Source: a virus. From it: 30,782 bases of DNA. Under the pieces are notes generated by a model, which was given only the letters and a program-made list of their open reading frames with translations, did not search any database and was not told the origin of the DNA. The stretch is taken from positions 1 through 30,782 of IMG/VR virus record IMGVR_UViG_3300012347_000070; one strand, given 5' to 3'. Below are positions 4,071-20,463 of the stretch, piece by piece. Position numbers and translations under genes: made by a program. How positions within the stretch are numbered: position 1 is the first letter of the stretch; each line of letters begins with the position of its first letter.

Positions 4071-4376
4071 ATGGAAAAGAAACAAACGGCAATAGAATGG
4101 CTAATAGACAAAGTAGAAGACCATTTCTGTTTATTACCAGTAGATTTAATTCAACAAGCTATGAAAATGCAAGAAGAACAATTTAAAGATTTTTTTATGG
4201 TAGGTGGTGATTGGGATGAGCTTCCGAATTCGAGGTTCAATAGATACTTTGATTCAAATTATAACAAGTTTGATTATATAAATTTATCTAATGAAAATAG
4301 TTGCAATAGATATAGTACTTTAGAATCCTTAAAAGCTAAACAACAAGACAATGAAAAAAAAACAAACGGCAATTGA
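4071..4376 (+). CDS. Family-A small protein, paralog A1 (MEKKQTAIEWLI...)
   Basis: The N-terminal KKQTAI(E/D)xLI motif and the nucleotide block aaacaaacggcaat (4080..4093) are shared with A2 (4360..4373). A3 shares aaacaaacggca (29899..29910). Confidence 0.7.
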   Translation: MEKKQTAIEWLIDKVEDHFCLLPVDLIQQAMKMQEEQFKDFFMVGGDWDELPNSRFNRYFDSNYNKFDYINLSNENSCNRYSTLESLKAKQQDNEKKTNGN

Positions 4377-4632
4377 CTCATTAATTAAAAGATGTAATGA
4401 TTCATTAGATAAAGAACCTATTAATCCTACTCAGCAAAAGATTGTATATAGCAAAGCTTTGTGTCACATAATTATTCTATTAGAAGAAGCCAAAGAAATG
4501 GAAGAAAAGCAGATAAAAGATGCTTTTGTTGAATGTTGGAAATCTAATATACCAGAAGGTATAGAATGCAAACTATCAGCAAAAGAATATTACTATAAAA
4601 CATACGGAAATGCTAACGACAAACGAAACTAA
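4351..4632 (+). CDS. Family-A small protein, paralog A2 (MKKKQTAIDSLI ... AKEMEEKQIKDA ... KEYYYKTY)
   Basis: Shares the N-terminal, central EKEQI(K/L)DA and C-terminal YY-x-x-TY motifs with 29890..30114 and 30572..78. Confidence 0.7.
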   Translation: MKKKQTAIDSLIKRCNDSLDKEPINPTQQKIVYSKALCHIIILLEEAKEMEEKQIKDAFVECWKSNIPEGIECKLSAKEYYYKTYGNANDKRN

Positions 4633-6254: not shown

Positions 6255-6431
6255 ATGAAACCAGACGAAAGAGCTAAATCGATTTTAAACAACGCTTTTT
6301 ACTTTACTGGTAATAAGAACCTAGCTAAAGAGCTTGCGCTTTGGATATGCGAACTAATAGGCGAAACAAAGCCTAAGATTGACGATAAGATTTACTGGAA
6401 GTTAGTAGCCGAAAACATTTATTTACTTTAG
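6255..6431 (+). CDS. Family-B-like small protein B3 (MKPDERAKSILNNAFYF...IYWKLV)
   Basis: ATG 6255 gives an N-terminus that aligns with MTPKEKAYELF of B1. The track's TTG 6183 start would run through the hairpin at 6176..6208. Confidence 0.5.
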   Translation: MKPDERAKSILNNAFYFTGNKNLAKELALWICELIGETKPKIDDKIYWKLVAENIYLL

Positions 6432-6907
6432 TGCAAGACATAACTATTCTAACTGATAAGCATAAGCACTGGGTCAAAATTGTAGAAGGTTTTGGCGAAA
6501 AGAATTACGCTCAAGATGTTGTTCAAGAGGCTTATATAAAAGTCTTAAAGATGAACAAAGATATTAATTATGCTTATTTCTACTACACGCTTAGAAGTCT
6601 TACGATGGACTTGCACTCAAAGAAAGTAGTTAAATGCGAGATTACAAGAGACATAGAGTATATGCTTCGAGAGGACGATAGCAACGAACTAGCGGAAGAA
6701 CTTGCACAACCTTATTTAGAATTTATAGAGACTTGGAATTGGTACGATAAGAAGATGTTTTTACTATGGGTAAACAATAACATCTCAATACGTAAGCTTT
6801 CAAGAGAAACAAAGATTAGCTTTAAAAGTGTTTACAATACAATTAGAAAGTGTAAAGAAAGAATCAAACAATGGCAAAAAGACCAATTAAAAGAAGAGTT
6901 ATTGTAG
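6431..6907 (+). CDS. Phage-encoded sigma-70 family (ECF-like) sigma factor
   Basis: Region-2-like YAQDVVQEAYIKVLKM ... YFYYTLRSLTMDLHSKK. Region-4 HTH-like WYDKKMFLLWVNNNISIRKLSRETKISFKSVYNTIRKCKERIKQ. 158 aa. GTG start overlaps the upstream stop (TAGTG). Confidence 0.6.
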   Translation: MQDITILTDKHKHWVKIVEGFGEKNYAQDVVQEAYIKVLKMNKDINYAYFYYTLRSLTMDLHSKKVVKCEITRDIEYMLREDDSNELAEELAQPYLEFIETWNWYDKKMFLLWVNNNISIRKLSRETKISFKSVYNTIRKCKERIKQWQKDQLKEELL

Positions 6908-7305: not shown

Positions 7306-7561
7306 GGTAGACAAACGAGGAGGAGCCAGAGAAGGGGCTGGCCGTAAATCTAAAGCTGAAGAACAATCTTTAGTAGAGAAGCTAACACCATTAGAGCCTA
7401 AAGCATTTGCGGTACTAGCTCAAGCGTTAGAAGACCATAAAGACTGGGCAGTTAAGCTATTCTTTCAATATCAGTTTGGTATGCCTAAGCAAGTGGTAGA
7501 CCAAAACACTACGCATACGATTAATGACTTTGACATTAAGGACATTGTAAAATTTAAGTGA
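7298..7561 (+). CDS. terS: Putative small terminase subunit
   Basis: Lies immediately upstream of terL and is coupled to it by a GTGA overlap. Basic N-terminus MDKVDKRGGAREGAGRKSK. ATG 7298 preferred over the track's GTG 7229. Confidence 0.45.
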   Translation: MDKVDKRGGAREGAGRKSKAEEQSLVEKLTPLEPKAFAVLAQALEDHKDWAVKLFFQYQFGMPKQVVDQNTTHTINDFDIKDIVKFK

Positions 7562-8769
7562 TAGAGCTAAATAGGAAATATGTACCTTTATTTGAAAGCG
7601 GAAGTAGGTACTTTGTAATTACGGGTGGAAGGGGTTCGGGCAAATCGTTTGCTTTGAACTCCTTTCTTTTGCTTCTAACGTACGAAGTAGGACACGTGAT
7701 ACTATTTACTAGATATACGCTTACTTCGGCTCATATCTCAATTATACCCGAGTTTGTAGAGAAGATAGAAATGGCTGGTCTTGAATCAGACTTTTACATA
7801 ACCAAAGACGAGATTATTAACACTCGTACAAATTCAAAGATTTTATTTAGGGGGATTAAAACCTCGAGCGGAACGCAAACCGCTAATCTCAAATCGTTAC
7901 AAGGTGTTACGACTTGGATACTAGACGAAGCCGAGGAGCTAACAGATGAAGACATCTTTGACAAGATAGACTTCTCTATTCGTAATAGCCAAAGACAAAA
8001 CCGAGTTATCTTAATTCTTAACCCGACTACCAAAGAGCACTTTATTTATAATCGATTCTTTGAAGAAAAGGGTGTTCAATCTGGACAATCCACAACGCAA
8101 GGCGATACGACTTACATACATACCACGTATAAGGATAATATTGATTACCTAAGTGAATCCTTCTTAAATCAAATCGAAGCCTTAGAGCGTACAAATAAAC
8201 GCAAATATGAGCATACGATTCTTGGAGGGTGGCTAGACAAAGCCGAAGGTGTAGTATTTACTAACTGGTCTTATGGGCAATTTAATCCCGACAACTTACA
8301 AACCTCATTCGGTCAAGACTTTGGTTTCTCGATTGACCCTACCACGCTAGTAGAAGTGGCGATAGATAAGACTAAGCGTAAGATATACGTTAAGGAGCAT
8401 CTTTATAAGCCCAAGCTAACTACAAGTGAGATAGCCCATATTAACAAGCGTGTTTGCGCTAAAGGATTAATTGTAGCGGATAGTGCCGAGCCTAGACTAA
8501 TAGCCGAGCTTCAGTCTCAAGGATGTAATATAATTGCGACAGAAAAAGGAGCGGGAAGTATAACGGCTGGTATCGCTTTAATACAAGATTACGAATTGAT
8601 TGTAGAATCTAACTCGCAAAACATTGGAAAAGAACTCAACAATTACATCTACTCAGATAAAAAATCTGGGCTTGTGGTCGATAACTTTAACCACGCTCTT
8701 GATGCGCTACGTTACAACGTCTTCTACCAGTTATCAAATCCAAACCAAGGAAAGTATTTCGTGTACTAG
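7558..8769 (+). CDS. terL: Terminase large subunit (PBSX-like family)
   Basis: Walker A ITGGRGSGKSF, Walker B-like TWILDEAEE, and a C-terminal RNase-H-like nuclease region (FGQDFGFSIDPT ... ADSAEPRLI ... HALDALRY). Confidence 0.9.
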   Translation: MIELNRKYVPLFESGSRYFVITGGRGSGKSFALNSFLLLLTYEVGHVILFTRYTLTSAHISIIPEFVEKIEMAGLESDFYITKDEIINTRTNSKILFRGIKTSSGTQTANLKSLQGVTTWILDEAEELTDEDIFDKIDFSIRNSQRQNRVILILNPTTKEHFIYNRFFEEKGVQSGQSTTQGDTTYIHTTYKDNIDYLSESFLNQIEALERTNKRKYEHTILGGWLDKAEGVVFTNWSYGQFNPDNLQTSFGQDFGFSIDPTTLVEVAIDKTKRKIYVKEHLYKPKLTTSEIAHINKRVCAKGLIVADSAEPRLIAELQSQGCNIIATEKGAGSITAGIALIQDYELIVESNSQNIGKELNNYIYSDKKSGLVVDNFNHALDALRYNVFYQLSNPNQGKYFVY

Positions 8770-8796
8770 TACAAAAAACAACAAATAACGTTTATA
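8767..8796 (+). promoter_or_regulatory. ECF-type bipartite motif copy 2 (tAGTAC-N16-CGTTTATA), 4 nt before ATG 8801
   Basis: CGTTTATA at 8789..8796. The -35-like element ends at 8772 (AC only, weakest -35 of the set). Confidence 0.45.
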
Positions 8797-8800
8797 CATT

Positions 8801-9478
8801 ATGAAGCTAGAGATAACTATTCCAACTAGTTTAAGCGAAATTAAGCTTAGCCAGTATTTAAAGTTTTTAGCCATTGCTGAGCAAAACGAAGAATCAGATT
8901 TTTTGCACCATAAAATGATTCAAATCTTTTGCAATGTAGAGTTGAAATATATTGACCAGTTTAAAAGAACTCAATTAATAGAAATAGTAAATAGTATTAA
9001 TTCACTATTTGAGAACGTGCCAGAGTTTAAGAATCGATTTGAGTTAAACGGAGTAGAGTACGGATTTATTCCAAACTTAGAGGATATAACGCAAGGGGAA
9101 TATATTGACTTAGATAACTATTTGCCAGTTAATAGCGATATGAATAAAGCTATGGCGGTAATGTTTAGACCGATAAAGCAAAGGTTTAAAGACAAGTATA
9201 TTATTGAGGATTATGCCGGCTCGAGTTTATATGCTGAAAAAATGTTAGATGCTCCATTAGATGTTGTTTTAGGAGCAAGGGTTTTTTTTTATCATTTAGG
9301 CAACGAATTATTGAAAAGTACGCTGACTTATTTGGAGGAGAAAGTGCCGAAAACGATTTTAGCGAACAAGCCCAATTTGGGAAAAGATGGGGATGGTATA
9401 GCTCTATCTATGCTCTCGCTCAAGGGGATGTTAGAAGATTTGATGAAGTTACCAGACTTCCGCTTAATCAATGTCTAA
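8801..9478 (+). CDS. Hypothetical structural-module protein (possible tail assembly chaperone-like), frame-0 product of 225 aa
   Basis: ATG ORF. Contains a T9 tract at 9282..9290, after which the -1 frame is also open. See the 9238..9543 feature. Confidence 0.65.
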   Translation: MKLEITIPTSLSEIKLSQYLKFLAIAEQNEESDFLHHKMIQIFCNVELKYIDQFKRTQLIEIVNSINSLFENVPEFKNRFELNGVEYGFIPNLEDITQGEYIDLDNYLPVNSDMNKAMAVMFRPIKQRFKDKYIIEDYAGSSLYAEKMLDAPLDVVLGARVFFYHLGNELLKSTLTYLEEKVPKTILANKPNLGKDGDGIALSMLSLKGMLEDLMKLPDFRLINV

Positions 9479-9543
9479 TGTTTTTAACATTTGAAAAGCA
9501 AAAGAACGAACTAGAAGTTAAATTAATTAATAAGCAAAAATAA
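9238..9543 (+). other. 101-codon stop-free -1 frame overlapping the 3' end of 8801..9478, entered at a T TTT TTT slippery site (9283..9289) and ending TAA 9541..9543 (TAATG with the next gene)
   Basis: Translated by hand: ...GFFLSFRQRIIEKYADLFGGESAENDFSEQAQFGKRWGWYSSIYALAQGDVRRFDEVTRLPLNQCLMFLTFEKQKNELEVKLINKQK*. The only ATG in this frame is at 9478 (a 21-aa micro-ORF, TAATG-coupled at both ends). Confidence 0.5.
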
Positions 9544-9998
9544 TGAACGGATATTATTACGTTGTAAATACTTTAAAGGATTATCTTAATAATACCGGTT
9601 TTATTAACACCGTTACAATTGGGGATATTTCAAGAGTAGATTTAGAGAAACAAACCATATTTCCTTTATCTCATATTATTGTTAATACCGCTCAATTGTC
9701 CGAGGTAACGACTTCTTTAAATATCTCTATTCTTTTAATGGATATTGTAGACGATAATAAGCAATTGGTTACTAATATTTGGGATGGCAATGACAACGAG
9801 CAAGACGTTTTAAACACGCAATTAACAATAGCTCAAAGACTTGTTAGTGATTTAATGAGAGGTAGCTTGTACTCTAACTTAGTTCAAGTTTTAGAGAGTC
9901 CAAACGCTGAGCCATTTATGGATAGATTTGAAAATAAAATAGCTGGTTGGACACTAACGTTCGACGTTATTATACCAAATGATATTACTATTTGCTAA
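9543..9998 (+). CDS. Hypothetical structural-module protein, 151 aa
   Basis: ATG ORF tiled in the late operon. Confidence 0.7.
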   Translation: MNGYYYVVNTLKDYLNNTGFINTVTIGDISRVDLEKQTIFPLSHIIVNTAQLSEVTTSLNISILLMDIVDDNKQLVTNIWDGNDNEQDVLNTQLTIAQRLVSDLMRGSLYSNLVQVLESPNAEPFMDRFENKIAGWTLTFDVIIPNDITIC

Positions 9999-10540
9999 TG
10001 GAGTTAAAAGCTAGTACAAAACTTTTAGAGAAATACAAAAACTACGTTATTCAGCAGGCTAAAGCAAACTTGTCTAAAGGACGTAATAATATGTCTAAGA
10101 CTTTATACAATAGCTTAAAGGGAGAAGTGGTTACCGATACTGGTTACGCTATTGTCGGTTTTCGTATGGAGGAATACGGACAATTTCTAGACGAAGGGGT
10201 TAAAGGAGCATTTCCTAGCTCGGTTAAGAATGGTAAGCAAAAAGCCCCAAACTCTCGCTTTATGTTTACCAACAAAAGACCGCCAGCGGATGTAATAGCG
10301 GATTGGGCTAAACGTAAAGGAATAAGATTAAGAGATAGCGAAGGAAAGTTTAAGAAAGGAAACTATAAAACTTTAGGATTTATAATAGCTAATAGAATTT
10401 ATGCACAAGGGGTAAAGCCTACATTATTCTTTACAAAGCCTTACGAGGCCGGATTTAAGAAATATATTCTAGGACAAATGCCTAATGAAGTTGTAATAGA
10501 TGTAGACAGAATAATAGATTTAAATTTAATTAAGAAATGA
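9998..10540 (+). CDS. Hypothetical virion protein, possibly HK97 gp10-like head-tail joining
   Basis: ATG 9998 (TAATG overlap) preferred over TTG 9992. The EEYGQFLDEGVKG block loosely resembles the gp10-family Y-x-x-(F/V)-E-x-G motif. Confidence 0.6.
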   Translation: MELKASTKLLEKYKNYVIQQAKANLSKGRNNMSKTLYNSLKGEVVTDTGYAIVGFRMEEYGQFLDEGVKGAFPSSVKNGKQKAPNSRFMFTNKRPPADVIADWAKRKGIRLRDSEGKFKKGNYKTLGFIIANRIYAQGVKPTLFFTKPYEAGFKKYILGQMPNEVVIDVDRIIDLNLIKK

Positions 10541-11604
10541 TAATTTACGCAAGAAGTCCTTATTTTGTTGAGGTAAACGAATCTTTGCAATTAGGCTCAA
10601 AGGTTGAATTGTTTATTTGGAATAATCCAGATAGCGAGCCTTTAACACCTACTTATACGTTTACTAAGTCTATTGCTTCAACTGTTAATCGTAAAAACGT
10701 TTATAACATAGCTCCATACATTAAAGAGTATATTGAAGCTATTACTCCGAGTGATTCTACGGATTCTATGTTAGCTTTAGTAAAAGTAAAGCGTTACAAA
10801 GAAGCTACGCTAGGTACTTACACGCTATTAGATACTACTACATACTATTCTACAAACGGATATACTGACTACTCAGGTGGTTATAATCAAGCTGGCTCAA
10901 CGGCACAACCTTTAGTTTTAGCTAACACGTCTTTAGAATATCGCTACGAAGAAGGGATTACCGATTACCCATTTGTAAACGTGTGGGCAGATAATTCTAG
11001 CCCTGCTACGCTAACCGTTACCTACAAAGATTTAAGAGGTCGTAACGAGGTTACAAACACTATTACAAGAGATGGAGCTAAGTTATACAAAGTGCCTTTG
11101 CGTACTTCATCAATAAAATACGACAAGGGTAATACTTGTACTATTAACTGGAAACCAACTGGCGAGTATATAGACGATACTTACACTATTAATGTAATGC
11201 CTATTTGTGAGCCTAGATATAACCCGATTGTTTGTCAGTTTATTAATCGTTTTGGAGGATGGCAATTCTTGACTTTCTTTAAAGGGCAAACTACTAATAT
11301 TCAAACGCAAGGGACTACGTATAATTTACTTCCTGATGCGGTAGACTACAACACTTCAAGAGCACAAACAAAGAGCTTTAATATTAATGGAGCTAAAAGC
11401 ATACGTTTAAATACGGGATGGATTCCAGAGAACTACTCGGAGCTTATCCAAGACTTACTTCTATCCGAGACGATTCTTTTAGATGGAGTGCCGGTAGAAG
11501 TTAAGACTTTATCAACAGATTTAAAGACCTCGTTAAAAGATAGAAATATTAATTATGAGGTAGAGTTTGCTTACGGGTTTAACCTTATTAATAACGTAGT
11601 TTAA
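10537..11604 (+). CDS. Hypothetical tail/virion structural protein, 355 aa
   Basis: ATGA overlap upstream. Ser/Thr/Asn/Tyr-rich beta-type composition. Confidence 0.7.
   Translation: MIIYARSPYFVEVNESLQLGSKVELFIWNNPDSEPLTPTYTFTKSIASTVNRKNVYNIAPYIKEYIEAITPSDSTDSMLALVKVKRYKEATLGTYTLLDTTTYYSTNGYTDYSGGYNQAGSTAQPLVLANTSLEYRYEEGITDYPFVNVWADNSSPATLTVTYKDLRGRNEVTNTITRDGAKLYKVPLRTSSIKYDKGNTCTINWKPTGEYIDDTYTINVMPICEPRYNPIVCQFINRFGGWQFLTFFKGQTTNIQTQGTTYNLLPDAVDYNTSRAQTKSFNINGAKSIRLNTGWIPENYSELIQDLLLSETILLDGVPVEVKTLSTDLKTSLKDRNINYEVEFAYGFNLINNVV
10677..10705 (+). promoter_or_regulatory. ECF-type bipartite motif copy 3 (TTCAAC-N15-CGTTTATA), intragenic
   Basis: AAC ends at 10682 and CGTTTATA is at 10698..10705. 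Confidence 0.3.
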
Positions 11605-13592
11605 TGATAAACGTACTATTATATATTTACGATACCGATAATAGCGAGCCACAAAGGATAGAGTTATTCAATGACGAAACTATTAGCGTTACTTCTAGTA
11701 TTCAAGACGTAAACGACATTTCTAAAATATTTACCGATTTTAGCCAGTCTTTTACTATCCCAGCTACACCTTATAATAATAAGATATTTAAACACTGGTA
11801 CGAAAACTCTATCGATAGTGGATTTGATGCTAGAAAAAGAAAGACTGCTTATATTGAGTTAGACTATGTACCATTTAGAAAGGGTAAAATTCAATTAGAG
11901 AAAGCAAGTATTAAAAACGGGCAAATCGAAAGCTATCAAATAACGTTTTTTGGGTCTTTAATATCTCTAAAAGATGCTTTTGCGGGTAAATATTTAAAAG
12001 ACTTAGACTTCAGCTCGATTAATTTTACTTATTCAGGAGCTGACGTAGTATCTAGGGTTTCAACAACTAATGATAGTACGGTTAAATTCCCTTTAATTAC
12101 TTCTTATAGAGTTTGGAAATATGGAGGCTCGGGTACTAGCGTAACAAATTGGGACATTTCTAAAAACGCATCTCCTATTTACCATACGGATTTATTTCCA
12201 GCGGTAAAGCTAAAAGGGATGTTAGATGTAATTGCGGATAACTTAGGTATTACTTTCGAGGGCTCTATCTTAGAAAACACAACAGAAACGGCTAAACATT
12301 TTCATCACGCTTATTTGTGGGCTAAAAATGCAAATAATTTTGAAATTAAGGTAGAAAGCCAATTAGTAGTATTTCAAACTAAATACTCTACTACTGGGTC
12401 TGAGGATTTATTCGATTTGCCTACTAGTACTTTAAATTATGTAGATGAAGGGGGAAGTACATTTATTGAAACGCAAACTTTTGATATTACTTGTACCGCT
12501 AATGGTATTGCCTCCGTATTTTATGTTTATCGTAATGGTGTTAAAATCTATGCTTTAAACTTTACTTCTTCAACAACTACGCAACAATTCGAACTTTTAA
12601 TTAGAGGTTCTGGTGCTTATACTTTCAAGATAAGCGCAGCAAGTACTTTAACCTATACCTCGGAGCTAAACTTTGCAATATCGGATGGCACAAGCGTTAT
12701 AAAAGATGTTGAAGTGATTCAAAGCACCTCACAAACTACTAACACTCTTATAGATTTGGCTAATTATATGCCAGAAATTAAGACCGAAGATTTTTTTGCA
12801 GGTGTTTTAAAGATGTTTAATCTTACTTGCTACTCAGATAGTCCCGGAGTATTTAAGATAGAGCAACTAGAAGACTGGTATAACGCTGGAGCAATTAGAG
12901 ATATTACTAGCCACGTTCATAGTGATAGTTTAGATATTGAAAGAGTTAAGCCTTACAATATGCTCAATTTTACTTACGAAGATAGCGAGGCTTTATTGAA
13001 CGTAGGATATAAGCAAAATTCTCCTATTCCTTATGGGAATTTGAATTACTCGTTAGATAACGATGGGGACGAGTATAGCGTAGCTTTACCTTTTGAGAAT
13101 ATGCTATTTAGCAAGTTTACCGGTACTAATTTGCAAGTAAGCTATGCTTTAAAGACCGATTATCAACAATATATACCAAAGCCGGTAATTTTATTCGACT
13201 ACGGAACGCTTCAATCTTGCTCAGCTTATTATATTAATGACGGTTCTACTACAACTTCAAAGACAAACTATAATGTTTTTGGACAAGATAGCTTAGTAAC
13301 TCCCAATGTTAATACGCTTAACTGGGGCTTAGAGCTTTCATCGTTTACGGGTAACGTTGAAAATAACACTTTGTTTAATGAATACTACTTAGCGTATTTA
13401 GATAATATTTACACGCTAAAGGCAAGAACTTTTAAGCTTAAAGCTTCTCTACCTATTAGCGTAATATCTAGTCTTAAAATGAACGATAGGCTAGTTATTC
13501 GGGACAAAAGATATATTATTAATTCGTTTACTACTAACCTTACAAGCGGGGAAGTAGACTTTACATTGTTACACGATTTTAGGGCGATATGA
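11604..13592 (+). CDS. Large tail structural protein, 662 aa
   Basis: TAATG overlap upstream. Size and composition are typical of tail hub, tubular or baseplate proteins. No specific family recognised. Confidence 0.7.
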   Translation: MINVLLYIYDTDNSEPQRIELFNDETISVTSSIQDVNDISKIFTDFSQSFTIPATPYNNKIFKHWYENSIDSGFDARKRKTAYIELDYVPFRKGKIQLEKASIKNGQIESYQITFFGSLISLKDAFAGKYLKDLDFSSINFTYSGADVVSRVSTTNDSTVKFPLITSYRVWKYGGSGTSVTNWDISKNASPIYHTDLFPAVKLKGMLDVIADNLGITFEGSILENTTETAKHFHHAYLWAKNANNFEIKVESQLVVFQTKYSTTGSEDLFDLPTSTLNYVDEGGSTFIETQTFDITCTANGIASVFYVYRNGVKIYALNFTSSTTTQQFELLIRGSGAYTFKISAASTLTYTSELNFAISDGTSVIKDVEVIQSTSQTTNTLIDLANYMPEIKTEDFFAGVLKMFNLTCYSDSPGVFKIEQLEDWYNAGAIRDITSHVHSDSLDIERVKPYNMLNFTYEDSEALLNVGYKQNSPIPYGNLNYSLDNDGDEYSVALPFENMLFSKFTGTNLQVSYALKTDYQQYIPKPVILFDYGTLQSCSAYYINDGSTTTSKTNYNVFGQDSLVTPNVNTLNWGLELSSFTGNVENNTLFNEYYLAYLDNIYTLKARTFKLKASLPISVISSLKMNDRLVIRDKRYIINSFTTNLTSGEVDFTLLHDFRAI

Positions 13593-13741
13593 TAGAACAA
13601 ATTTTAAAAATGCTTTCAAGTTTTGAGCATTATAATAGAAGCGAGGTAATAGAAATTGCTAAAGGCAAATATGAATTACCAAAAACATTTAAAAAGGGCT
13701 GGAATCAAATAAAACGTAATTACAAATGGCAAAATCAATAG
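13589..13741 (+). CDS. Small hypothetical protein, 50 aa (MIEQILKMLSSFEHYNRSEVIEIAKGKYELPKTFKKGWNQIKRNYKWQNQ)
   Basis: Below the track cutoff. ATGA overlap with the upstream stop. It fills an otherwise 133-nt gap and overlaps the next start by 16 nt. Confidence 0.45.
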   Translation: MIEQILKMLSSFEHYNRSEVIEIAKGKYELPKTFKKGWNQIKRNYKWQNQ

Positions 13742-15330
13742 AAGTAGATATTAACGTTAATAATAATATTGAAGGCTCTATATCTCAATTAAAGGCACTT
13801 AAAAGAGAGTTAAAAAACACGGCGGTAGGAACTGAAGAGTTTAAGAACTTATTTAATCAAATTGATGACTTAGAGGACAAGATTAAGTCAGCTAAAAACG
13901 TTTCTAGCGATTGGATAGACTCTTTAGAATCCGCTGGCGGGCCAATTGGTATGCTAGGAGGGGCTTTAAATAAAGCTAAAGTAGCTACTCAATCTTGGGG
14001 AGCGGCATTAAAAGCGGCTGGTATTGGTTTAATCGTTGCGGCGGTAGGTGGTTTAGTTGCGGCTTTCTCAGAATCTGAGTCCGCAATGAAAAAACTTGAG
14101 CCATTATTTATTGGGTTAGAGAAGATTTTAGGTGGTATTATGAAAGTATTTGAGCCTTTGCTAGATGCTTTTATTAGTCTTGCTTTAAACGCTTTGCCTT
14201 ATATCACAAAAGGTATAGGTGTATTCTATTCTAGCTTATTTGCTCTATTTACTTTAATTAAAAACGTAGGATTTGGAGCGGGTAAAATTCTTAAAGGGAT
14301 ATTTACTTTAGATTTCAAGTCTATTAGCGATGGATACGAGCAACTAAAAGGAAGTTGGGGCGAAGCAGTTAAAGATTTTGAGGCTACAAATAAGCGATTT
14401 AATGAAGGCACAAAGGAATTAACTAAAACCGAAAAGGAAAACTCTAAGAAAAGAGTAGAAAATAGAAAGACAGAAAAGAAAGAGAAAGATAAAGTTATTG
14501 ATTCGGAGCTACAAGCTATGCGAGAGTTTCAAACTGAATACGAAAACTATCTAAAGCGTTTAACTGATATTCAAAAGCAGTATAATACTGAAATAGAAGA
14601 CTTACAAGCGGTAACTGAACAACAAAAGCTAGATTTGTGGTATAAGCGTAGAGCGGAAGAAATAGACGCTATTACAAAAGACGCAGGCGAGAAGAATGAT
14701 TTATACGCTTTATTAGAAACTGAAAGAGCGATTAAGCAAGCCGAAATTGAAAAGAAAAAAGAGGATGAACTAACTAAGATTAGGCAAGAAGGTGAAGAGG
14801 CACGTACAAAATATGAAGCTGAGCAATCGGATGCTAGAAAGAAAATAGCGGAATTAGAAGTTAAAGCAAAGCAAGAATTATTACAAATTGGAGCAAATGC
14901 TTTAGGAGTAGCGGCAAGTCTTTTAGGAGAATCAACGGATGAAGGTAAAGCGGCAGCAATTGCTTCTACTACCATTTCTACTTACTTAGCAGCTCAACAA
15001 GCTTATGCTTCACAACTTGCTATACCTACACCTGATGCGCCTTTTAGAGCGGCTTTAGCGGCTGGGGTTGCGGTAGCTTCTGGTCTCGCAAACGTGCAAA
15101 AGATTTTATCGGTACAAACTCCAAATGGAGGTGGTAATGGTGGTGGAGTTCCTAGTGGAGGAGCACCGCAAGCACCATCTTTCAACGTAGTAGGCACTAG
15201 CGGAGCTAACCAAATTGCACAAACATTAGGACGAGAGCAAGCCCCATTAAAAGCTTACGTAGTTGCTCAAGACGTAACAACACAACAAGCTCTTAATAGA
15301 AATATTGTTACCTCGGCAAGCCTTGGATAA
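13726..15330 (+). CDS. Tape-measure-like or internal virion protein, 534 aa
   Basis: N-terminal coiled coil, hydrophobic Gly/Ala-rich membrane-like segments (AAGIGLIVAAVGGLVAAF), a long charged coiled coil (KKEKDK...EIEKKKEDE), and a C-terminal Gly-rich NGGGNGGGVPSGG. Confidence 0.5.
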   Translation: MAKSIEVDINVNNNIEGSISQLKALKRELKNTAVGTEEFKNLFNQIDDLEDKIKSAKNVSSDWIDSLESAGGPIGMLGGALNKAKVATQSWGAALKAAGIGLIVAAVGGLVAAFSESESAMKKLEPLFIGLEKILGGIMKVFEPLLDAFISLALNALPYITKGIGVFYSSLFALFTLIKNVGFGAGKILKGIFTLDFKSISDGYEQLKGSWGEAVKDFEATNKRFNEGTKELTKTEKENSKKRVENRKTEKKEKDKVIDSELQAMREFQTEYENYLKRLTDIQKQYNTEIEDLQAVTEQQKLDLWYKRRAEEIDAITKDAGEKNDLYALLETERAIKQAEIEKKKEDELTKIRQEGEEARTKYEAEQSDARKKIAELEVKAKQELLQIGANALGVAASLLGESTDEGKAAAIASTTISTYLAAQQAYASQLAIPTPDAPFRAALAAGVAVASGLANVQKILSVQTPNGGGNGGGVPSGGAPQAPSFNVVGTSGANQIAQTLGREQAPLKAYVVAQDVTTQQALNRNIVTSASLG

Positions 15331-15338
15331 TTTGAAAA

Positions 15339-15367
15339 TGTAACAAAAAAAACTTTAAACGTTTATA
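15339..15367 (+). promoter_or_regulatory. ECF-type bipartite motif copy 4 (TGTAAC-N15-CGTTTATA), 4 nt before ATG 15372
   Basis: AAC ends at 15344 and CGTTTATA is at 15360..15367. It lies in the intergenic gap ahead of the protease-scaffold-capsid block. Confidence 0.5.
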
Positions 15368-15371
15368 GGAT

Positions 15372-15950
15372 ATGCGAATCGTAGAATTAGTAATAGAAAA
15401 GGATTTAGACGGAATAGAAGCCGTAAGTCTGGTAGATGCGCCGGCAATAGAAGAGAATTTTATTGCTCTTAACAAAGAGTATAGAATGGACTTAGCCGAA
15501 GTAGATTCAGATAAGCGTATTCTTATGGGTGCTGCTTTAGTTCCTAACAAACAAATTTATCGAAGAAATGGTAAGGACGAGTTTTACGTATTCTTTAGCG
15601 AAGCAACGGTTAAGCAAGCGAGCGAGTTATTCTTAAAGAATGGAAACCAATCTAACGCAACTCTTGAGCATAAGAATAAATTCGAAGGGGCTACGGTTGT
15701 AGAATCTTGGATTATTGACAACCCAGAAATGGACAAGTCTAGGGCTTACGGATTCGATTTACCTAAGGGTACTTGGATGATTTCTATGAAGATAGAAGAC
15801 GAGAAAGTTTGGAAGGAAGTTAAAGAGGGTAAATACAAGGGCTTCTCTATCGAAGGATATTTTGCGGATAAATTAGAGATGTCTTTACAAGAGCTAGAAG
15901 AGGAAGAGTTAATTAATCAAATCATAAATATTTTACAAGATGGCGAATAA
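15372..15950 (+). CDS. XkdF-like putative prohead protease
   Basis: VSLVDAPAIEENFIAL ... ILMGAALVPN ... FFSEATVKQASELFLKNG ... NATLEHK resembles the PBSX XkdF family. It sits directly upstream of scaffold and capsid. Confidence 0.55.
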   Translation: MRIVELVIEKDLDGIEAVSLVDAPAIEENFIALNKEYRMDLAEVDSDKRILMGAALVPNKQIYRRNGKDEFYVFFSEATVKQASELFLKNGNQSNATLEHKNKFEGATVVESWIIDNPEMDKSRAYGFDLPKGTWMISMKIEDEKVWKEVKEGKYKGFSIEGYFADKLEMSLQELEEEELINQIINILQDGE

Positions 15951-16122
15951 AAAAACAAGCCCACAAGACTCTAAAAGAGCTTGTCTTTGCGAAGACGGGA
16001 CTTACTCTAAAGAATGTTGCAAAGGCGAAGAAATTAATCAGGGAATTGGAGCTACCGAAGGGCAAGCTACCTCGATTATTATTAATACAAATGAAGCACG
16101 AGTAATTATAAGAGAAAATTAA
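15940..16122 (+). CDS. Small Cys-rich hypothetical protein, 60 aa
   Basis: ATG ORF with 11-nt overlap upstream. Contains CLCEDGTYSKECC. Confidence 0.5.
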   Translation: MANKKTSPQDSKRACLCEDGTYSKECCKGEEINQGIGATEGQATSIIINTNEARVIIREN

Positions 16123-16136
16123 ACAAATAAATAAAT

Positions 16137-16736
16137 ATGGAATACAAGAACAAGTTAAACAAGATTAAAGCTGTTCTTTCTATGGAGATTAAACTAGCAC
16201 AAATGAAGTTAGAAGACGGAATTACCGTTATTGAAGCTGAAGAGTTTGCGCCAGAGTTTTCTGTAGGAATTGTAACAGAAGATGGTATTGTAGCTTTGCC
16301 AGTAGGCGAGTACAAGTTAGAGGACGGTATGATTTTAGTAGTAGCCGTAGAGGGTATTATTGCTGAAATTAAAGAAGCTGAAGCTGAAGCTCCAGAAGTG
16401 GAAGTAGAAGTAGAAGTAGCACCGGAAGAGGTTATTGAGCCGGAGATGGCAGCCGAAGCTCCTAAAGCTAAGCGTATTGTAGAATCAGTATCTAAAGAGA
16501 CTTTCTTTGCTGAAATCGAAAAATTACGTTCTGAGTTTTCTTTGATTAAGCAAGAGAACGAAGCATTAAAAGCGGAGAATGAATCGCTTAAGGTAGAGAT
16601 GTCTTCTATTGAAGCAGGCGCTGAGCCTTTAGCTCACAATCCAGAAGCGGGAATCGCTCCAAAACCTTTTAGAATTAGTAAAAACAAAACGTCTTCAATT
16701 GAAGATTCAGTATTTAGTAAAATCTTTTCAAAATAA
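16137..16736 (+). CDS. Scaffolding protein
   Basis: Located immediately upstream of the capsid gene. Acidic low-complexity EAEAEAPEVEVEVEVAPEE and a C-terminal coiled coil (EKLRSEFSLIKQENEALKAENESLK). Confidence 0.6.
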   Translation: MEYKNKLNKIKAVLSMEIKLAQMKLEDGITVIEAEEFAPEFSVGIVTEDGIVALPVGEYKLEDGMILVVAVEGIIAEIKEAEAEAPEVEVEVEVAPEEVIEPEMAAEAPKAKRIVESVSKETFFAEIEKLRSEFSLIKQENEALKAENESLKVEMSSIEAGAEPLAHNPEAGIAPKPFRISKNKTSSIEDSVFSKIFSK

Positions 16737-16756
16737 TTAACAAACAAATTTAAAAA

Positions 16757-17716
16757 ATGGCTACTACAACTAGTATTACAACAACTTACGCTGGCGAGTA
16801 TAAGAATCAGATTATCTCGGCTGCTTTATTATCTTCTCCTACTATCGATGCGGGTGGTATCACGGTTAAACCGGGTATCAAGTACAAAGAAGTGGTTAAG
16901 AAATTATCTACGGATGCAATCTTAAAAGATGCTTCTTGTGATTTTACGGCTACGTCTACAGTTACTTTAACTGAGCGTATTTTACAACCAGAAGAATTTC
17001 AAGTTAACTTACAATTATGTAAGAAAGACTTTCATTCTGATTGGTTATCAGCTCAACAAGGTTACTCAGCATTTGATGTATTGCCTTCTTCTTTCGCAGA
17101 CTTCTTAGTAGCTCACGTAGCGGCTAAAGTAGCAGCTAAGAACGAGACAAACATCTGGACTGGTGTAACTGCTAACGCAGGTGAGTTCAACGGATTCTCT
17201 ACATTATTAGCGGCAGATGCTGCTTTACCAGCTGCTCAAGAGGTTGCAGGTACAACGGTTACTGCTTCTAACGTAGTAGCTGAATTAGGTAAAATTGTAG
17301 ATGCTATCCCAGCTGCTCTTTACGGACAAGACGGTTTACATATCTACGTATCTCAGAACATCGCTCGTGCTTACGTTCGTGCTTTGGGTGGGTTTGCTGC
17401 TTCTGGCTTAGGTGCTAACGGTACTAACGCAATGGGAACTCAATGGTATAACAACGGTTCTTTATCATTTGACGGAGTAAAAATCTTCGTAGCAAATGGT
17501 TTAGCGGCTAACACTGCAATCGCTACTTTGAAAGAGAACTTGTACTTCGGTACTGGTGTTCTTGCAGATATGGATGCTTCTTCTGTAAAAGTTATCGATA
17601 TGGCAGACGTAGACGGTTCAGAAAACGTACGTGTAGTAATGCGTATGACAGCTGGTGTTCAGTACGGTTCGGTAGAAGATATCGTAACTTACGGAATCAC
17701 TAACGCAGCTAACTAA
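16757..17716 (+). CDS. Major capsid protein
   Basis: 319 aa, follows the scaffold, and is followed by a strong terminator. Ala/Gly/Thr-rich with strongly biased codon use (GCT, GGT, ACT, GTT). Confidence 0.7.
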   Translation: MATTTSITTTYAGEYKNQIISAALLSSPTIDAGGITVKPGIKYKEVVKKLSTDAILKDASCDFTATSTVTLTERILQPEEFQVNLQLCKKDFHSDWLSAQQGYSAFDVLPSSFADFLVAHVAAKVAAKNETNIWTGVTANAGEFNGFSTLLAADAALPAAQEVAGTTVTASNVVAELGKIVDAIPAALYGQDGLHIYVSQNIARAYVRALGGFAASGLGANGTNAMGTQWYNNGSLSFDGVKIFVANGLAANTAIATLKENLYFGTGVLADMDASSVKVIDMADVDGSENVRVVMRMTAGVQYGSVEDIVTYGITNAAN

Positions 17717-17730
17717 TTAGCTTATAAGAT

Positions 17731-17761
17731 AGCACCTCGTTAATTCGGGGTGCTTATTTTT
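17731..17761 (+). terminator. Rho-independent terminator after the capsid gene
   Basis: agcacctcg (17731..17739) pairs with cggggtgct (17746..17754). 9 bp including one G-U pair, loop ttaatt, then tattttt. Confidence 0.8.
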
Positions 17762-17781
17762 CATCTTTTAAATTAATCAAT

Positions 17782-18309
17782 ATGTCTTGTGATATTTCCT
17801 TAGGTAGAATTGAGCCTTGCAAAACGAGTAACGGGGGGTTAAAAGCCGTTTACTTCGTGAATTGGGGCGATGCTACGGGGGTTACTTATGATGCTACAAA
17901 CACGGATGCTATCTCGGCTGTAACTGGGACTCCGGTAGCTTATAAGTACGACCTAAAGGGTAATAGTTCTTTCGAGCAAACTATTACTTCTTCTCGTGAG
18001 AATGGTACTACCTTCTTCGAGCAAACGTTAAACTTAACGTTAAAACAATTGTCTATTGTAGACCATAAGCAAATTAAGCTTTTGTCTTACGGACGTCCTC
18101 AAGTTATCGTAGAAGATAACAACGGAAACTTATTCTATTGCGGTCTTCAGCACGGTATGGAAGTATCTGGCGGTACTATCGTTACTGGGGCTGCAATGGG
18201 AGATTTAAGCGGTTATACTTTAGTCTTATCTGGTCAAGAGCCAGTACCGGCTAACTTCTTAACTACTACTTTAGTAGCGGCTGGATTCACCGTAACTCCG
18301 GGCGCTTAG
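17782..18309 (+). CDS. Abundant virion protein candidate (possible major tail/tube protein), 175 aa
   Basis: Bracketed by two terminators. The N-terminal C-x-x-x-NGGLKAVYFVN block resembles tail-tube proteins of Bacteroidota phages as I recall them (weak). Confidence 0.65.
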   Translation: MSCDISLGRIEPCKTSNGGLKAVYFVNWGDATGVTYDATNTDAISAVTGTPVAYKYDLKGNSSFEQTITSSRENGTTFFEQTLNLTLKQLSIVDHKQIKLLSYGRPQVIVEDNNGNLFYCGLQHGMEVSGGTIVTGAAMGDLSGYTLVLSGQEPVPANFLTTTLVAAGFTVTPGA

Positions 18310-18335
18310 TCTTTTGTTGTTTGAGGTTTGAAATT

Positions 18336-18361
18336 GGGGGAGCAGATGTCTTCCCCTTTTT
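18336..18361 (+). terminator. Rho-independent terminator
   Basis: gggggag (18336..18342) pairs with cttcccc (18350..18356), loop cagatgt, then ttttt. Confidence 0.7.
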
Positions 18362-18370
18362 CGTTTAAAA

Positions 18371-18399
18371 GAAACAAAACCTATAAAATAACGTTTATA
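18371..18399 (+). promoter_or_regulatory. ECF-type bipartite motif copy 5 (GAAAC-N16-CGTTTATA), 5 nt before ATG 18405
   Basis: GAAAC at 18371..18375 and CGTTTATA at 18392..18399. It lies immediately after a terminator. Confidence 0.55.
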
Positions 18400-18404
18400 G
18401 AATA

Positions 18405-18731
18405 ATGATAGTTTTAAGAGAATCCAATTTAGCGCAAAGTGTAAGATTCGTTCCTACTCGTAGAAATGCGGGGAATAAGCTATTTTTGCGAAACGAAACT
18501 ACTAACGTAGAAGTAGAATACGATATTACTTGTACTCAAACGTCTTACTATCTTACTTTCTCAAAGGTATTAACTTTAGAAGAAGGACACTTTTACACAA
18601 TGACTATAAAGCAAGATGCCGAGTTAATCTTTAGAGATAAGGTATTTTGCACGAATCAAACAATAGGAGCGTATAGCGTTAATAATAACGAGTACGTACA
18701 AAACGACCAAAATATAATTTTCTATGAGTAA
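18405..18731 (+). CDS. Hypothetical virion-module protein, 108 aa
   Basis: ATG ORF with 8-nt overlap with the portal gene start. Confidence 0.65.
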   Translation: MIVLRESNLAQSVRFVPTRRNAGNKLFLRNETTNVEVEYDITCTQTSYYLTFSKVLTLEEGHFYTMTIKQDAELIFRDKVFCTNQTIGAYSVNNNEYVQNDQNIIFYE

Positions 18732-20463
18732 CGTTCACGTTTTTAACTTTGAATCTCATAAGCCCCCGCAATCCGTAGAATCTAACAAAGAAGCTTGGGT
18801 TAATTTCGGAGACGATAACGACTACTTCAAGTACTTAATTGATAGATATAATAACTCGACTACTAATAACTCGGTTATTAATTCTATTAATAAGTTAATC
18901 TATGGTAGGGGATTAGATGCAACGGACTCAAACAAAAAGCCGAACGAATACGCTCAGATGAAAATGTTATTTCGTCCTGAGGTATTAAAGTGCGTTATTA
19001 CCGACTATAAATTACTTGGACAAGGATACTTTCAATTAATCTATAACAAGGCTAAGAATGCGATTATTAGAGTAGAGCACGTGCCAGCTCAATTAATCCG
19101 CTCCGAGAAATGCAATGAGAAAGGCGAAATTACTGGTTATTACTATTCTGATAACTGGCAAGACATTAAGAACTTTGTGCCAAAGCGTATTAGTGCATTT
19201 GGTTATGGCGATAAAACGTTAGAGATTCTTTGTGTTAGAGATTATAGCGTAGGACAAAAATACTATTCTAACGTAGATTATATCGGGGCTTTGCCTTACG
19301 CTAAGTTAGAAGAAGAGATTGCTGACTATTTGATTAACGATGTTCAAAACGGGTTTTCCCCTACTAGCGTTATTAACTTTAATAATGGTGTACCAGACGA
19401 AGAGAAACAAGGTTTAATTGCAGCAGACGTAAAGCGTAAATTAGCGGGTTCTAGCGGTGCTAAAATTGTTGTAGCGTTCAATAGTGACGAGACAAAGAAA
19501 ACGACTATTGATAGCGTACCTTTAAACGATGCTCCGGCACACTATACATATTTAAGTGAAGAATCGAGAGGCAAGATTTTATTAGGTCACTCTATTACTA
19601 GTGGCTTGCTATTTGGTATCCCTTCTAACAATGGATTTAGCTCAAACGCTGACGAGTTAAAGAATGCTTCTATCTTGTTTGATAATATGGTAATTCGTCC
19701 TAAACAAGGAACGGTTTTAGATGCTATCGACAAGATTTTAGCGTTTAACAATATTAGCTTAAATCTTTACTTTAAGACTTTACAACCTTTGGAATTTATT
19801 GACCAGAATCCGGCAATGAATACCGAGCAAGTAGAAGAAGAGACTGGTTTGAAGCTTTCTTCTCAATTAGAGGAGCTAGAAACTTACGGAGAAGAGTTAG
19901 ACCTTAACGAGTGGGAGTTAATCGATTCTAGGGTAGTAGAAAGCCTTGAGGAGGAAGAGAAATTAAACGCTGAGTTAGAATTATTAAACAATCCTAAAAA
20001 ATCGGTATTTAGTAAGATTTGGGAGTTAGCAACGGTATCTACCGGAGTGGCTAGACCAGACTTAAAATCTGCTTTAGATGGTAAGTTATTTATTTCTCGT
20101 TATCGTTATAGCGGTAACCCTACTCCCGAAAGAGCATTTTGTAAAAAAATGATGCAAATGAATAAACTATATCGTAAAGAAGATATAGATAAGATGAGCC
20201 AAAAGAATGTTAATCCCGGCTTTGGTATGGCTCCTAACCCAAATGCTCCTTACGATATTTTTCTTTGGAAGGGAGGCGGTAAATTAAGCAATGAGTTTCA
20301 GTTTGGGACTTGTAAGCATTTTTGGACGAGAGAAACTTATAAGAGATTCACAGACCCAAGAAAGAAAGGAACGGTAGAGATTACCCCGGCACAAGCTCGC
20401 AAGGCTGGCGAAATTTTACCAACGGTAGACAAGAGAGCGTATATTGCGCCTCACGATATGTAA
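18724..20463 (+). CDS. Portal protein with an extended Cys-containing C-terminal domain
   Basis: 579 aa. The N-terminal two thirds look portal-like (size, YYSDNW, acidic stretch EEETGLKLSSQLEELE). The C-terminal ~140 aa carry ERAFCKKM ... GTCKHFW. Confidence 0.6.
   Translation: MSNVHVFNFESHKPPQSVESNKEAWVNFGDDNDYFKYLIDRYNNSTTNNSVINSINKLIYGRGLDATDSNKKPNEYAQMKMLFRPEVLKCVITDYKLLGQGYFQLIYNKAKNAIIRVEHVPAQLIRSEKCNEKGEITGYYYSDNWQDIKNFVPKRISAFGYGDKTLEILCVRDYSVGQKYYSNVDYIGALPYAKLEEEIADYLINDVQNGFSPTSVINFNNGVPDEEKQGLIAADVKRKLAGSSGAKIVVAFNSDETKKTTIDSVPLNDAPAHYTYLSEESRGKILLGHSITSGLLFGIPSNNGFSSNADELKNASILFDNMVIRPKQGTVLDAIDKILAFNNISLNLYFKTLQPLEFIDQNPAMNTEQVEEETGLKLSSQLEELETYGEELDLNEWELIDSRVVESLEEEEKLNAELELLNNPKKSVFSKIWELATVSTGVARPDLKSALDGKLFISRYRYSGNPTPERAFCKKMMQMNKLYRKEDIDKMSQKNVNPGFGMAPNPNAPYDIFLWKGGGKLSNEFQFGTCKHFWTRETYKRFTDPRKKGTVEITPAQARKAGEILPTVDKRAYIAPHDM

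Follow-up and report, generated by a model that had tools for sequence, protein, structure and literature searches.

What does a run of nine consecutive T mean when it lies within a phage gene and the reading frame one nucleotide back stays open past the end of that gene, up to the start of the next one? The question is raised by gene X (8801..9478), an open reading frame (ORF) of the IMG/VR virus record IMGVR_UViG_3300012347_000070, whose positions 1 to 30,782 (the window) were analysed here and supply the coordinates given below. The comparison of about 250 loci indicates that the T tract is no sequencing error but a genuine site of programmed recoding, deeply conserved and missing from annotations. 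Indeed, the comparison demonstrates, at the level of sequence, the conservation of the tract, the coding character of both downstream frames, the lack of an independent start and the link with the gene downstream. What we infer from these data is the stage at which the frame would be shifted (transcription or translation), the ratio of the products and the function. The explanation that we prefer, and to which we would assign about an even chance, is a programmed -1 recoding at the conserved T9, with the shift brought about mainly by slippage of the host RNA polymerase; -1 ribosomal frameshifting in the manner of lambda G/GT would be its close rival.

The T tract and its predicted products

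The elements of gene X on which the argument rests are the following.

8801..9478, + strand: gene X as a frame-0 ORF (from the ORF list), 225 aa, i.e., an N-terminal domain (N-domain, residues 1-163) and a 62-aa frame-0 tail
9282..9290, + strand: T9 homopolymer, the putative recoding site, within ORF 8801..9478 (from the sequence)
9283..9289, + strand: phased slippery heptamer T_TTT_TTT (zero-frame codons GTT TTT TTT TAT)
9289..9543, + strand: -1 frame extension, 84 codons and TAA (from translation), with a helix segment, a Gly/Ser/Glu linker and a C-terminal WGWY domain
9290..9340, + strand: dual-coded segment, the 17 codons 3' of the run, reading YHLGNELLKSTLTYLEE in frame 0 and LSFRQRIIEKYADLFGG in the -1 frame (9289..9339)
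9297..9299, + strand: TAG of the +1 frame, three codons past the run, within TTTAGG
9388..9399, + strand: WGWY motif of the -1-frame domain (TGG GGA TGG TAT)
9541..9545, + strand: TAATG junction, the stop of the -1 ORF overlapping the ATG of the downstream gene (9543..9998, 151 aa)

Standard decoding would yield the 225-aa protein, that is, the N-domain followed by the 62-aa frame-0 tail. A -1 shift at the tract would yield a 247-aa protein with the same N-domain, an equivalent helix segment, the linker and the WGWY C-terminal domain, and the stop of this product would be coupled to the start of the next gene. In conceptual translation, the 247-aa product joins 8801..9289 to 9289..9540 (163 + 84 aa) through the junction ...GARVFFLSFR, while frame 0 stops at 9476..9478, 64 nt short of the next gene.

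The sequence-only reading that had drawn attention to this locus is borne out in its coordinates: the nine T and the T_TTT_TTT in zero-frame phase, the -1 frame free of stops from 9238 to the TAA at 9541..9543 (101 sense codons), the TAATG overlap with the frame-0 stop 64 nt upstream, and the sizes and junction of the two products were all recovered from the sequence and its translation. The length of the run can be read from the tract-spanning sequence, GTTTTTTTTTAYNNTTTAGG. The same reading had considered so long an open -1 frame to be unlikely by chance, in agreement with the density of off-frame stops in the window genes (0.094-0.114 per codon) and with the sharing of the arrangement by about 250 loci. 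The longest off-frame open run was 55 codons among the 7955 codons of the window genes, scanned in the +1-offset frame only. The window is AT-rich (GC 0.29-0.39); it holds two A/T runs of 9 nt against 6.7 expected from shuffles, and T7 runs are depleted (29 observed, 51.5 expected).

The only other 9-nt homopolymer of the window is an A9 run (4354-4362), which encodes Lys-Lys-Lys straight after the ATG of ORF 4351..4632, in the 26-nt overlap of this ORF with ORF 4071..4376. These two ORFs have paralogous N-termini (MEKKQTAIEWLIDK and MKKKQTAIDSLIKR), and slippage at the A9 run would truncate or alter the products of both.

Conservation of the tract among relatives

The relatives compared cover the roughly 250 loci from cultured phages, IMG/VR contigs, genome collections and metagenome contigs, drawn from JGI, TARA, ENA, metagenome-assembled genomes (MAGs) and isolates. 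A megablast search of positions 7500-11700 against cultured phages found no match. The conceptual fused protein, searched by tblastn against 50,697 cultured phage records, matched only the Nonlabens (Persicivirga) phages P12024L and P12024S, at about 30% identity and in two pieces lying in different frames; distant fused variants used as tblastn queries retrieved nothing beyond the Nonlabens phages among cultured phages, and a scan queried with P0244 gave no match. At the corresponding site, the DNA of P12024L and P12024S reads CTT TTT TTT TAT CAT TTA GG, i.e., T9 in the same register, followed by an identical ATCATTTAGG, and the -1 frame bears the same KWGWY motif. In RefSeq, gp40 (175 aa) and gp41 (in the -1 frame) of P12024 are separate hypothetical coding sequences (CDSs).

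T9 was found in identical register in 80 of 80 IMG/VR relatives (53-99% identity). In these loci the -1 frame is open for 82-85 codons where the contig reaches, with a sole exception (L054), and the +1 frame stops after three codons, as it does after two or three codons in every scored locus. Genome collections returned 11 loci, 10 of which were assessed (L149 was left out), and T9 is present in all 10, including the prophages of the isolates Flagellimonas onchidii XY-359 and Maribacter sp. 2210JD10-5, both sitting on large scaffolds; among 52 loci at a greater distance, the run is invariably T9 or T10. Metagenome contigs were also scanned without bias, with a pattern open to any run from T7 to T11, and this gave among the matches listed 115 T9, one T8, one T10 and three unrelated sequences. 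Altogether, the run has a length of 9 or 10, and never less than 9, in 134/134 scored loci, which fall into four configurations of length and register: (9,1) in 118 loci, (10,0) in seven, (9,2) in six and (10,2) in three. Immediately downstream, the TTTAGG hexamer is invariant among the closer relatives, and TTTAA is found in some distant clades.

In the exceptional locus L054 (IMGVR_UViG_3300020050_002714), the sequence diverges wholly right past T9 (locus position ~3480), with 4 open codons in frame 0, 12 in the -1 frame and no WGW motif. This may be a breakpoint, from recombination or assembly, placed exactly at the homopolymer.

Tracts of other lengths do occur. Fused database proteins of 244-251 aa are rare (eight among the best 120 hits, each in the smallest contig-count class), and their DNA has T10 (L083, L085) or T7 (L084) at the tract; T10 was also found in L277 and T8 in L200, and the rare database proteins of 163-165 aa that end in FFII (P0131, P0212) are T8-type variants. 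The idea that the fused proteins are ancestral unsplit genes was discarded, their junctions (VFFL..., VFL..., GFFD...) and their DNA being those of T10/T7 variants of the tract. The deviant lengths (T7, T8 and T10, fused or truncated) are not the consensus; the contigs that bear them could be homopolymer errors, real minority genotypes or, if the sample was a metatranscriptome, traces of slipped transcripts.

Coding character of the -1 frame

When 70 unique sequences were aligned by codon, variability in codons 29-84 of the -1 frame was greatest at position 3, lower at position 1 and lowest at position 2. The entropies at positions 1/2/3 are 0.6/0.3/0.8 within the overlap and 0.5/0.3/0.8 past the frame-0 stop. 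Across clades that share less than 60% identity in the N-domain, no part of the protein is better conserved than the -1 domain, with an identity of 0.51 against 0.46 for the N-domain. The impression that the -1 peptide resembles a real protein is thus upheld by a coding signature and by conservation. The WGWY motif lies in the -1 frame of most IMG/VR relatives and of all 10 genome-collection loci, and never in frame 0 or +1; a motif search found the variant forms YGW, FGW and WGY in some relatives, and W197 G198 W199 Y200 are invariant in the alignment of the fused variants. In all assessable loci the WGWY domain is attainable only via a -1 shift.

The -1 frame of the window has no ATG, GTG or TTG ahead of 9478, since no ORF of at least 40 aa is listed there, and of 200 unique loci just 14 have an ATG in this frame 5' of the WGWY motif. 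The -1 stop either overlaps the next ATG or lies directly against it in 165/173 unique loci (as ATGA in 122 and as TAATG in 25), the frame-0 stop lying at a median of 64 nt upstream of the next gene. Because of the coding signature, the rarity of an ATG of its own and the coupling of its stop to the next ATG, we consider the -1 ORF to be a real coding frame that would act as the true 3' end of the gene in the operon.

Two explanations that dispense with recoding can be weighed together at this point. If the true sequence were T10 or T7, as the sequence-only reading had also proposed, 8801..9543 would be a single gene, and a phase variation between T9 and T10 by replication slippage would act at the same DNA level. 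The rare fused proteins with T10 or T7 at exactly this site and the T8-type truncated ones speak for such a scenario, and homopolymers are known to be hypermutable (PMC1088944). However, the assembled consensus is T9, or a T10 that still requires a -1 shift, in about 250 independent loci; just 2 of the 117 tracts among the matches listed in the metagenome scan deviate from T9, no deviation was seen in the 80 IMG/VR relatives, and T9 is found in the isolate prophages as well. An error would not be reproduced over 30-99% identity, so that a consensus T9 across this range excludes a sequencing error, and neither error nor variation would leave a frame-0 tail open for 62 codons. An artefact or a DNA-level variation therefore appears extremely improbable. 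According to the other explanation, there would be two genes, the -1 ORF, or only its last 21 codons (from the ATG at 9478), being translated by independent initiation or by termination-reinitiation. RefSeq does treat gp40 and gp41 as two CDSs, and the stop of gp40 shares nucleotides with an ATG; the TAATG at 9476-9480 of the window links the frame-0 stop to a -1-frame ATG, and PHROGs keeps the two parts as separate families, 32199 and 38404. Against it stand the missing start codon before 9478, the 14 of 200 loci just mentioned, and the 17 -1-frame codons past the run, which are conserved as protein and must therefore be translated. Moreover, the Met at 9478 is Thr in most relatives, and a micro-ORF of 21 aa, which had been among the options first raised, leaves the conserved 63 codons upstream of it unexplained. 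We regard two separate genes as highly improbable. Programmed recoding as a class, be it ribosomal or transcriptional, which the sequence-only reading had put forward, is in keeping with a conserved run, with a -1 frame that bears a coding signature and lacks a start of its own, and with a -1 stop coupled to the next gene. The check on relatives that had been advised, and that was carried out here, found the T tract kept, the -1 frame open and both downstream frames maintained.

In the window itself, a 21-codon ORF of the -1 frame starts at the ATG at 9478; ribosomes that terminate in frame 0 could in principle reinitiate at 9476-9480, read the 21 codons and pass to the TAATG at 9541-9545. This relay is not conserved, because the Met is Thr in most relatives.

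The frame-0 tail and a helix encoded twice

The homologs of gene X number more than 2000, most of them 225 or 226 aa long. A frame-0 tail was recognisable in 100 of 150 representatives of 50%-identity clusters, with a median length of 62 aa, and in 94 it measures at least 50 aa. When the -1 protein was resampled synonymously, the probability that frame 0 stays open by chance for at least 62 codons was 0.004-0.006 in the window; by the same procedure P ranged from 0.001 to 0.083 in 16 of 18 clade representatives, and the tail length was not significant in L121 (40 codons) and in the Nonlabens phages (25 codons). These values suggest that the frame-0 tail is kept open by selection, far beyond chance. 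The view that it is a mere annotated end is consequently not sustained, as the tail is kept open and its first 17 codons are dual-coded. The frame-0 'GDGI' motif, considered as a further argument for the tail, was set aside: it is not independent evidence, because WGWY in the -1 frame forces it.

In the first 17 codons past the tract, all three codon positions are constrained (entropy 0.50/0.47/0.33). The residues differ between the frames but the hydrophobic pattern is alike, with an amphipathic helix in both: the hydrophobic positions common to the two frames are 1, 3, 7, 8, 11/12, 14 and 15, occupied in frame 0 by Y/W1, L3, L7, L8, I/L12, Y14 and L15, and in the -1 frame by L1, F3, I/V7, I/V8, Y11, L14 and F15. 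An AlphaFold2 model of the frame-0 protein, built on a 77-sequence alignment, has a mean predicted local distance difference test (pLDDT) of 79.5, with 85-93 in the N-domain. Residues 153-188 form one helix in this model, which therefore crosses the shift site at residues 163/164. We read the model to mean that each isoform needs the final helix of the N-domain in full, and that the DNA would have been shaped to supply it in either frame. The remainder of the frame-0 tail may be loosely constrained or disordered, or may only keep ribosomes moving.

Transcriptional slippage or ribosomal frameshifting

According to the explanation that we prefer, the host RNA polymerase would slip on the nine-base-pair rU:dA hybrid and add one U, and the resulting U10 mRNA would be read normally. 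Loss of one U would give U8 (and U11 would act likewise), leading to a third product of 165 aa that would end in ...VFFII at the +1-frame TAG (9297..9299). Runs of 9 A or 9 T cause efficient slippage of the bacterial RNA polymerase, whose RNA-DNA hybrid is 9-10 bp long (PMC5009743); slippage is used by the mxiE T run and by the Thermus dnaX A9 run (PMC1088944), and T runs with n > 8 have been linked to programmed transcriptional realignment (PMC3711429). Gene X has a run of about the length of the RNA-DNA hybrid (at least 9) at the frame junction, as expected for transcriptional slippage. At the level of DNA the run is homogeneous, with T9 in 115 of the 117 tracts among the matches listed in the metagenome scan. 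The polymerase is favoured because the run is never shorter than nine in any of the four configurations and because no conserved RNA structure accompanies it. The length of the run is conserved beyond coding need, which dual-frame amino-acid constraints can partly explain. Furthermore, TTC makes up 0% of the Phe codons inside the run (119 unique sequences) versus 27% elsewhere in the gene; the last of these codons (9287-9289) is never TTC, though TTC is synonymous in both frames and allowed by X_XXY_YYZ.

As for RNA structure, RNAalifold on 21 diverse sequences gave a consensus of 0 pairs around the site (pseudoknots were not explicitly searched), and single-sequence folds around it were no better than shuffles (z-scores ~0). 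No stimulatory element, be it an upstream Shine-Dalgarno (SD)-like sequence or a stem-loop 5-9 nt downstream, was found, such an element being common, not obligatory, in -1 frameshifting. A hairpin GCUCC(N16)GGAGC (9250-9275), five nt upstream of U9, was examined as a conserved stimulator and rejected, since it is broken or absent in most relatives: some have a compensatory GCACC/GGUGC, and in many the 3' arm is missing or a U-U mismatch interrupts the pairing. In the window this hairpin looked like a terminator, or like that of a Roseiflexus insertion sequence (IS).

Several considerations weigh against our explanation. T9 in any register always includes a phased T_TTT_TTT heptamer, and the absence of structure leaves a ribosomal shift viable, because many phage chaperone frameshifts need none. 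The flanking T's are partly set by amino acids, that is, by the hydrophobic NTN codon before the run and by the residues encoded next, Tyr/Trp in frame 0 and Leu in the -1 frame; a preference for UUU over UUC in the A site may reflect no more than the greater slipperiness of UUU for the ribosome, and some AT-rich organisms may tolerate such runs (Baranov et al.). Within the frame-0 tail, the position-3 entropy of codons 18-62 of the overlap equals that outside the overlap (0.80 in both cases) and residues 181-225 have a low pLDDT (39-57) in the frame-0 model. Lastly, gene X has no Pfam, NCBIfam, PDB-sequence or Foldseek-PDB match. The close rival is a -1 ribosomal frameshifting, in which a faithful U9 mRNA would be decoded with a slip on U_UUU_UUU (9283..9289), polymerase slippage being negligible or incidental. 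This would agree with the correctly phased X_XXY_YYZ heptamer in every configuration seen, and with a classic phage architecture in which a short and a long product share their N-terminus in a structural module with a tape-measure-like gene. Phage chaperone frameshifts commonly lack stimulators and work at an efficiency of a few percent; frameshifting was measured at 6-7% in the GeneTack paper (PMC3711429), and lambda requires a 30:1 ratio of its two products (PMC5009743). However, seven T's would be enough for the ribosome, yet the run has at least nine in all 134 scored loci; the Z position of the heptamer is never C, though TTC is synonymous in both frames; no conserved RNA structure lies downstream or upstream; and slippage of RNA polymerase on T9 would be expected in any case (PMC5009743, PMC1088944). 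On balance, we grant ribosomal frameshifting alone an appreciable, though clearly less than even, probability. Polymerase slippage and ribosomal frameshifting may also act together.

The observations on the frame-0 tail lend themselves to a further alternative, in which the recoding is real and the tail serves no purpose by itself past the shared helix. It would be stop-free so that unshifted ribosomes end near the next gene, which would avoid polarity or keep the mRNA unfolded, on the assumption that the host does not rely on Shine-Dalgarno sites. The lack of extra synonymous-site conservation in codons 18-62 and the low pLDDT of residues 181-225 speak for this scenario, as do the between-clade identity of just 0.35 in the codons past the shared helix and the 25-codon tail that suffices in the Nonlabens phages. 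However, the length of the protein is tight (225/226 aa, with a median tail of 62 aa) across clusters that are less than 50% identical, and the usual end lies about 64 nt before the next gene and does not reach it. We would place the probability of a tail of this kind only a little short of even. Going back to slippage by the polymerase as the main source of the shift, a broader reading can be offered, tentatively and at not quite even probability, in which the stutter of the host polymerase, on a tract that equals its RNA-DNA hybrid in length, sets the ratio of three isoforms (225, 247 and 165 aa) throughout the family and the gene is a non-canonical, hitherto unrecognised assembly chaperone in a very large set of Bacteroidota phages from the sea and from freshwater. 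In the same tentative reading, evolution would have fitted the DNA past the tract to specify one amphipathic helix in both frames, keeping the N-domain intact in each isoform.

An ORF of 158 aa (6431-6907) is weakly similar to gp35 of P12024L (21% identity, pairwise E = 3e-5), which RefSeq notes as Sigma-70 region 2, and it has no Pfam hit. If this ORF encodes a phage sigma factor, the late genes, including gene X, would be transcribed by the host core RNA polymerase, a point of relevance to the proposed slippage.

Protein identity and gene neighbourhood

Pfam searches with gene X, the fused product and five neighbours gave no hit at E <= 0.01 and no relevant hit at E <= 1, and NCBIfam gave a single irrelevant hit below threshold (ICE_Mbov_0392, E 0.003, 17.3 bits against a cut-off of 40). 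A PDB sequence search with the fused-variant profile yielded 0 hits at E <= 10, and those with g151, g182, g355 and g662 yielded nothing meaningful. Foldseek against PDB found no hit at E < 1 either with the model of the fused protein (pLDDT 67.5) or with that of the frame-0 protein (79.5). The matches in BFVD are only uncharacterised proteins of uncultured phages and of the Nonlabens phage P12024S, and both of the PHROGs families into which gene X is split (32199 and 38404) are of unknown function.

Gene X is preceded by the large terminase gene, TerL (7558..8769; Pfam Terminase_3), and followed by a series of genes on the same strand.

9543..15330, + strand: conserved downstream block with g151, g182, g355, g662, g50 and the tape-measure-like gene (13726..15330)

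The order of gene X, g151, g182, g355, g662 and the tape-measure-like gene, and then a prohead protease, is kept in distant relatives; the adjacency of gene X and TerL is not conserved in them. The tape-measure-like protein (534 aa, 13726..15330) matches PHROG tape-measure families. The other genes of the block in the window lack a two-frame architecture, and the window has no chaperone-like pair directly upstream of the tape-measure-like gene. The best explanation is that a conserved virion/tail-module block of a Bacteroidota (Flavobacteriia-type) phage begins with gene X, for which we propose, purely by analogy with lambda G/GT, an assembly-chaperone-like role with two C-terminal isoforms.

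Over 7558-20463, the module comprises TerL, gene X, four genes of structural size without known function, the tape-measure-like gene, a Peptidase_S78_2 protease, a putative scaffold and capsid, and the portal. This order is unusual in that the portal lies downstream of the capsid and the tail-like genes upstream of the head genes; P12024L has the same order, across the ends of its record. Right after the portal (18724..20463) lies a GIY-YIG/NUMOD homing-endonuclease gene (20467-20985; Pfam GIY-YIG, PHROG 314), which looks like a mobile insertion in the structural module.

Significance

The family of gene X is large, with more than 2000 clusters of proteins at the 90% identity level and 3312 at the 50% level, from marine and freshwater phages and from prophages of Bacteroidota. 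Because the gene is annotated everywhere as one or two hypothetical genes, its best-conserved domain is missing or orphaned in every catalogue. The approximately 250 loci, with their four configurations, form a clean natural data set on how homopolymer length and context bear on programmed slippage, in hosts of a phylum that differs from E. coli in translation initiation and in polymerase behaviour. In addition, a 17-residue helix with the same hydrophobic pattern in two frames offers a compact example of a dual coding compatible with folding. If gene X were the missing tail assembly chaperone (TAC) of these siphoviruses, the annotation rule by which the TAC adjoins the tape measure would fail for this group.

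Comparison with known systems

The sequence-only reading had suggested a similarity to the G/GT pairs of tail assembly chaperones, and this holds in part. In conceptual translation, the architecture of a short product and a longer -1 product is that of G/GT, with overlapping frames, 225 and 247 aa and a common N-terminus, as read from the sequence of about 250 loci. The position is different, gene X ending at 9543 and the tape-measure-like gene starting at 13726, with the same order in distant relatives, and Pfam, NCBIfam, PHROG, PDB, Foldseek and BFVD gave no TAC family. Since both position and family or fold similarity were tested and neither agreed, gene X is not filed as a member of G/GT. 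A search of the literature on TAC frameshifts in flavobacterial phages and on homopolymer slippage in phages found nothing.

The gpG/gpGT pair of lambda reportedly arises by a -1 programmed ribosomal frameshift (PRF; Levin 1993, Xu 2004). Gene X resembles it in that its short product and its -1-extended one would begin with the same N-terminus, in that a tape-measure-like gene belongs to the same structural module, and in having a phased slippery heptamer with no obligatory RNA stimulator. Unlike gpG/gpGT, it does not lie between the major tail and tape-measure genes; it opens the block, separated from the tape-measure-like gene by 4.2 kb and five genes, and has no sequence or fold similarity to any TAC family; its run of at least nine T is strictly conserved, whereas a lambda-type site is a 7-mer such as G_GGA_AAG, and its shift takes place two-thirds of the way through the ORF, with an overlap of 62 codons against a few.

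In Shigella flexneri, transcriptional slippage on a T/U run reportedly fuses the two ORFs of mxiE (Penno 2005). The likeness to gene X consists of a T run on the sense strand, a longer conserved product that requires one extra U, and two ORFs annotated separately. However, mxiE is a bacterial regulator on a virulence plasmid, whereas gene X belongs to a phage structural module, and the upstream ORF of mxiE is short, whereas the unshifted product of gene X would be a full domain with a tail of conserved length. The mxiE tract is described as a run of Us (PMC1088944) and is cited under T runs with n > 8 (PMC3711429).

The dnaX gene of Thermus thermophilus (A9) shares with gene X a nine-base homopolymer within the CDS and two isoforms with a common N-terminus. 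The dnaX isoforms are produced at a fixed ratio via transcription in Thermus or translation (-1 PRF) in E. coli. The alternative frames of dnaX end almost at once, giving the truncated gamma, whereas that of gene X encodes a conserved domain of 84 aa. P3N-PIPO of potyviruses is comparable as a conserved overlapping ORF without a start of its own that is reached when the polymerase slips on a short homopolymer (GAAAAAA) and that was found first by comparative genomics; in contrast with gene X, it belongs to an RNA virus, with a viral RNA-dependent RNA polymerase (RdRp), an A6 motif and an unrelated biology, and at gene X polymerase slippage is only proposed. C-terminally extended isoforms also arise by frameshifting in T7 10A/10B, SPP1 gp17.1* and Cps/Tsh of the Listeria phages A118/PSA, to which a morphogenetic role of gene X would be analogous. 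Those are major capsid or tail-tube proteins with recognisable folds, whereas the predicted alpha/beta N-domain of gene X has no counterpart among solved structures, whether of capsids, of tubes or of other kinds.

The phenomenon is therefore of a known kind and not categorically new. Gene X would represent a distinct variant of it, characterised by an obligatory run of at least nine T, a probable polymerase-level mechanism, a long two-frame overlap, a helix encoded in two frames, a non-canonical position and an unknown fold.

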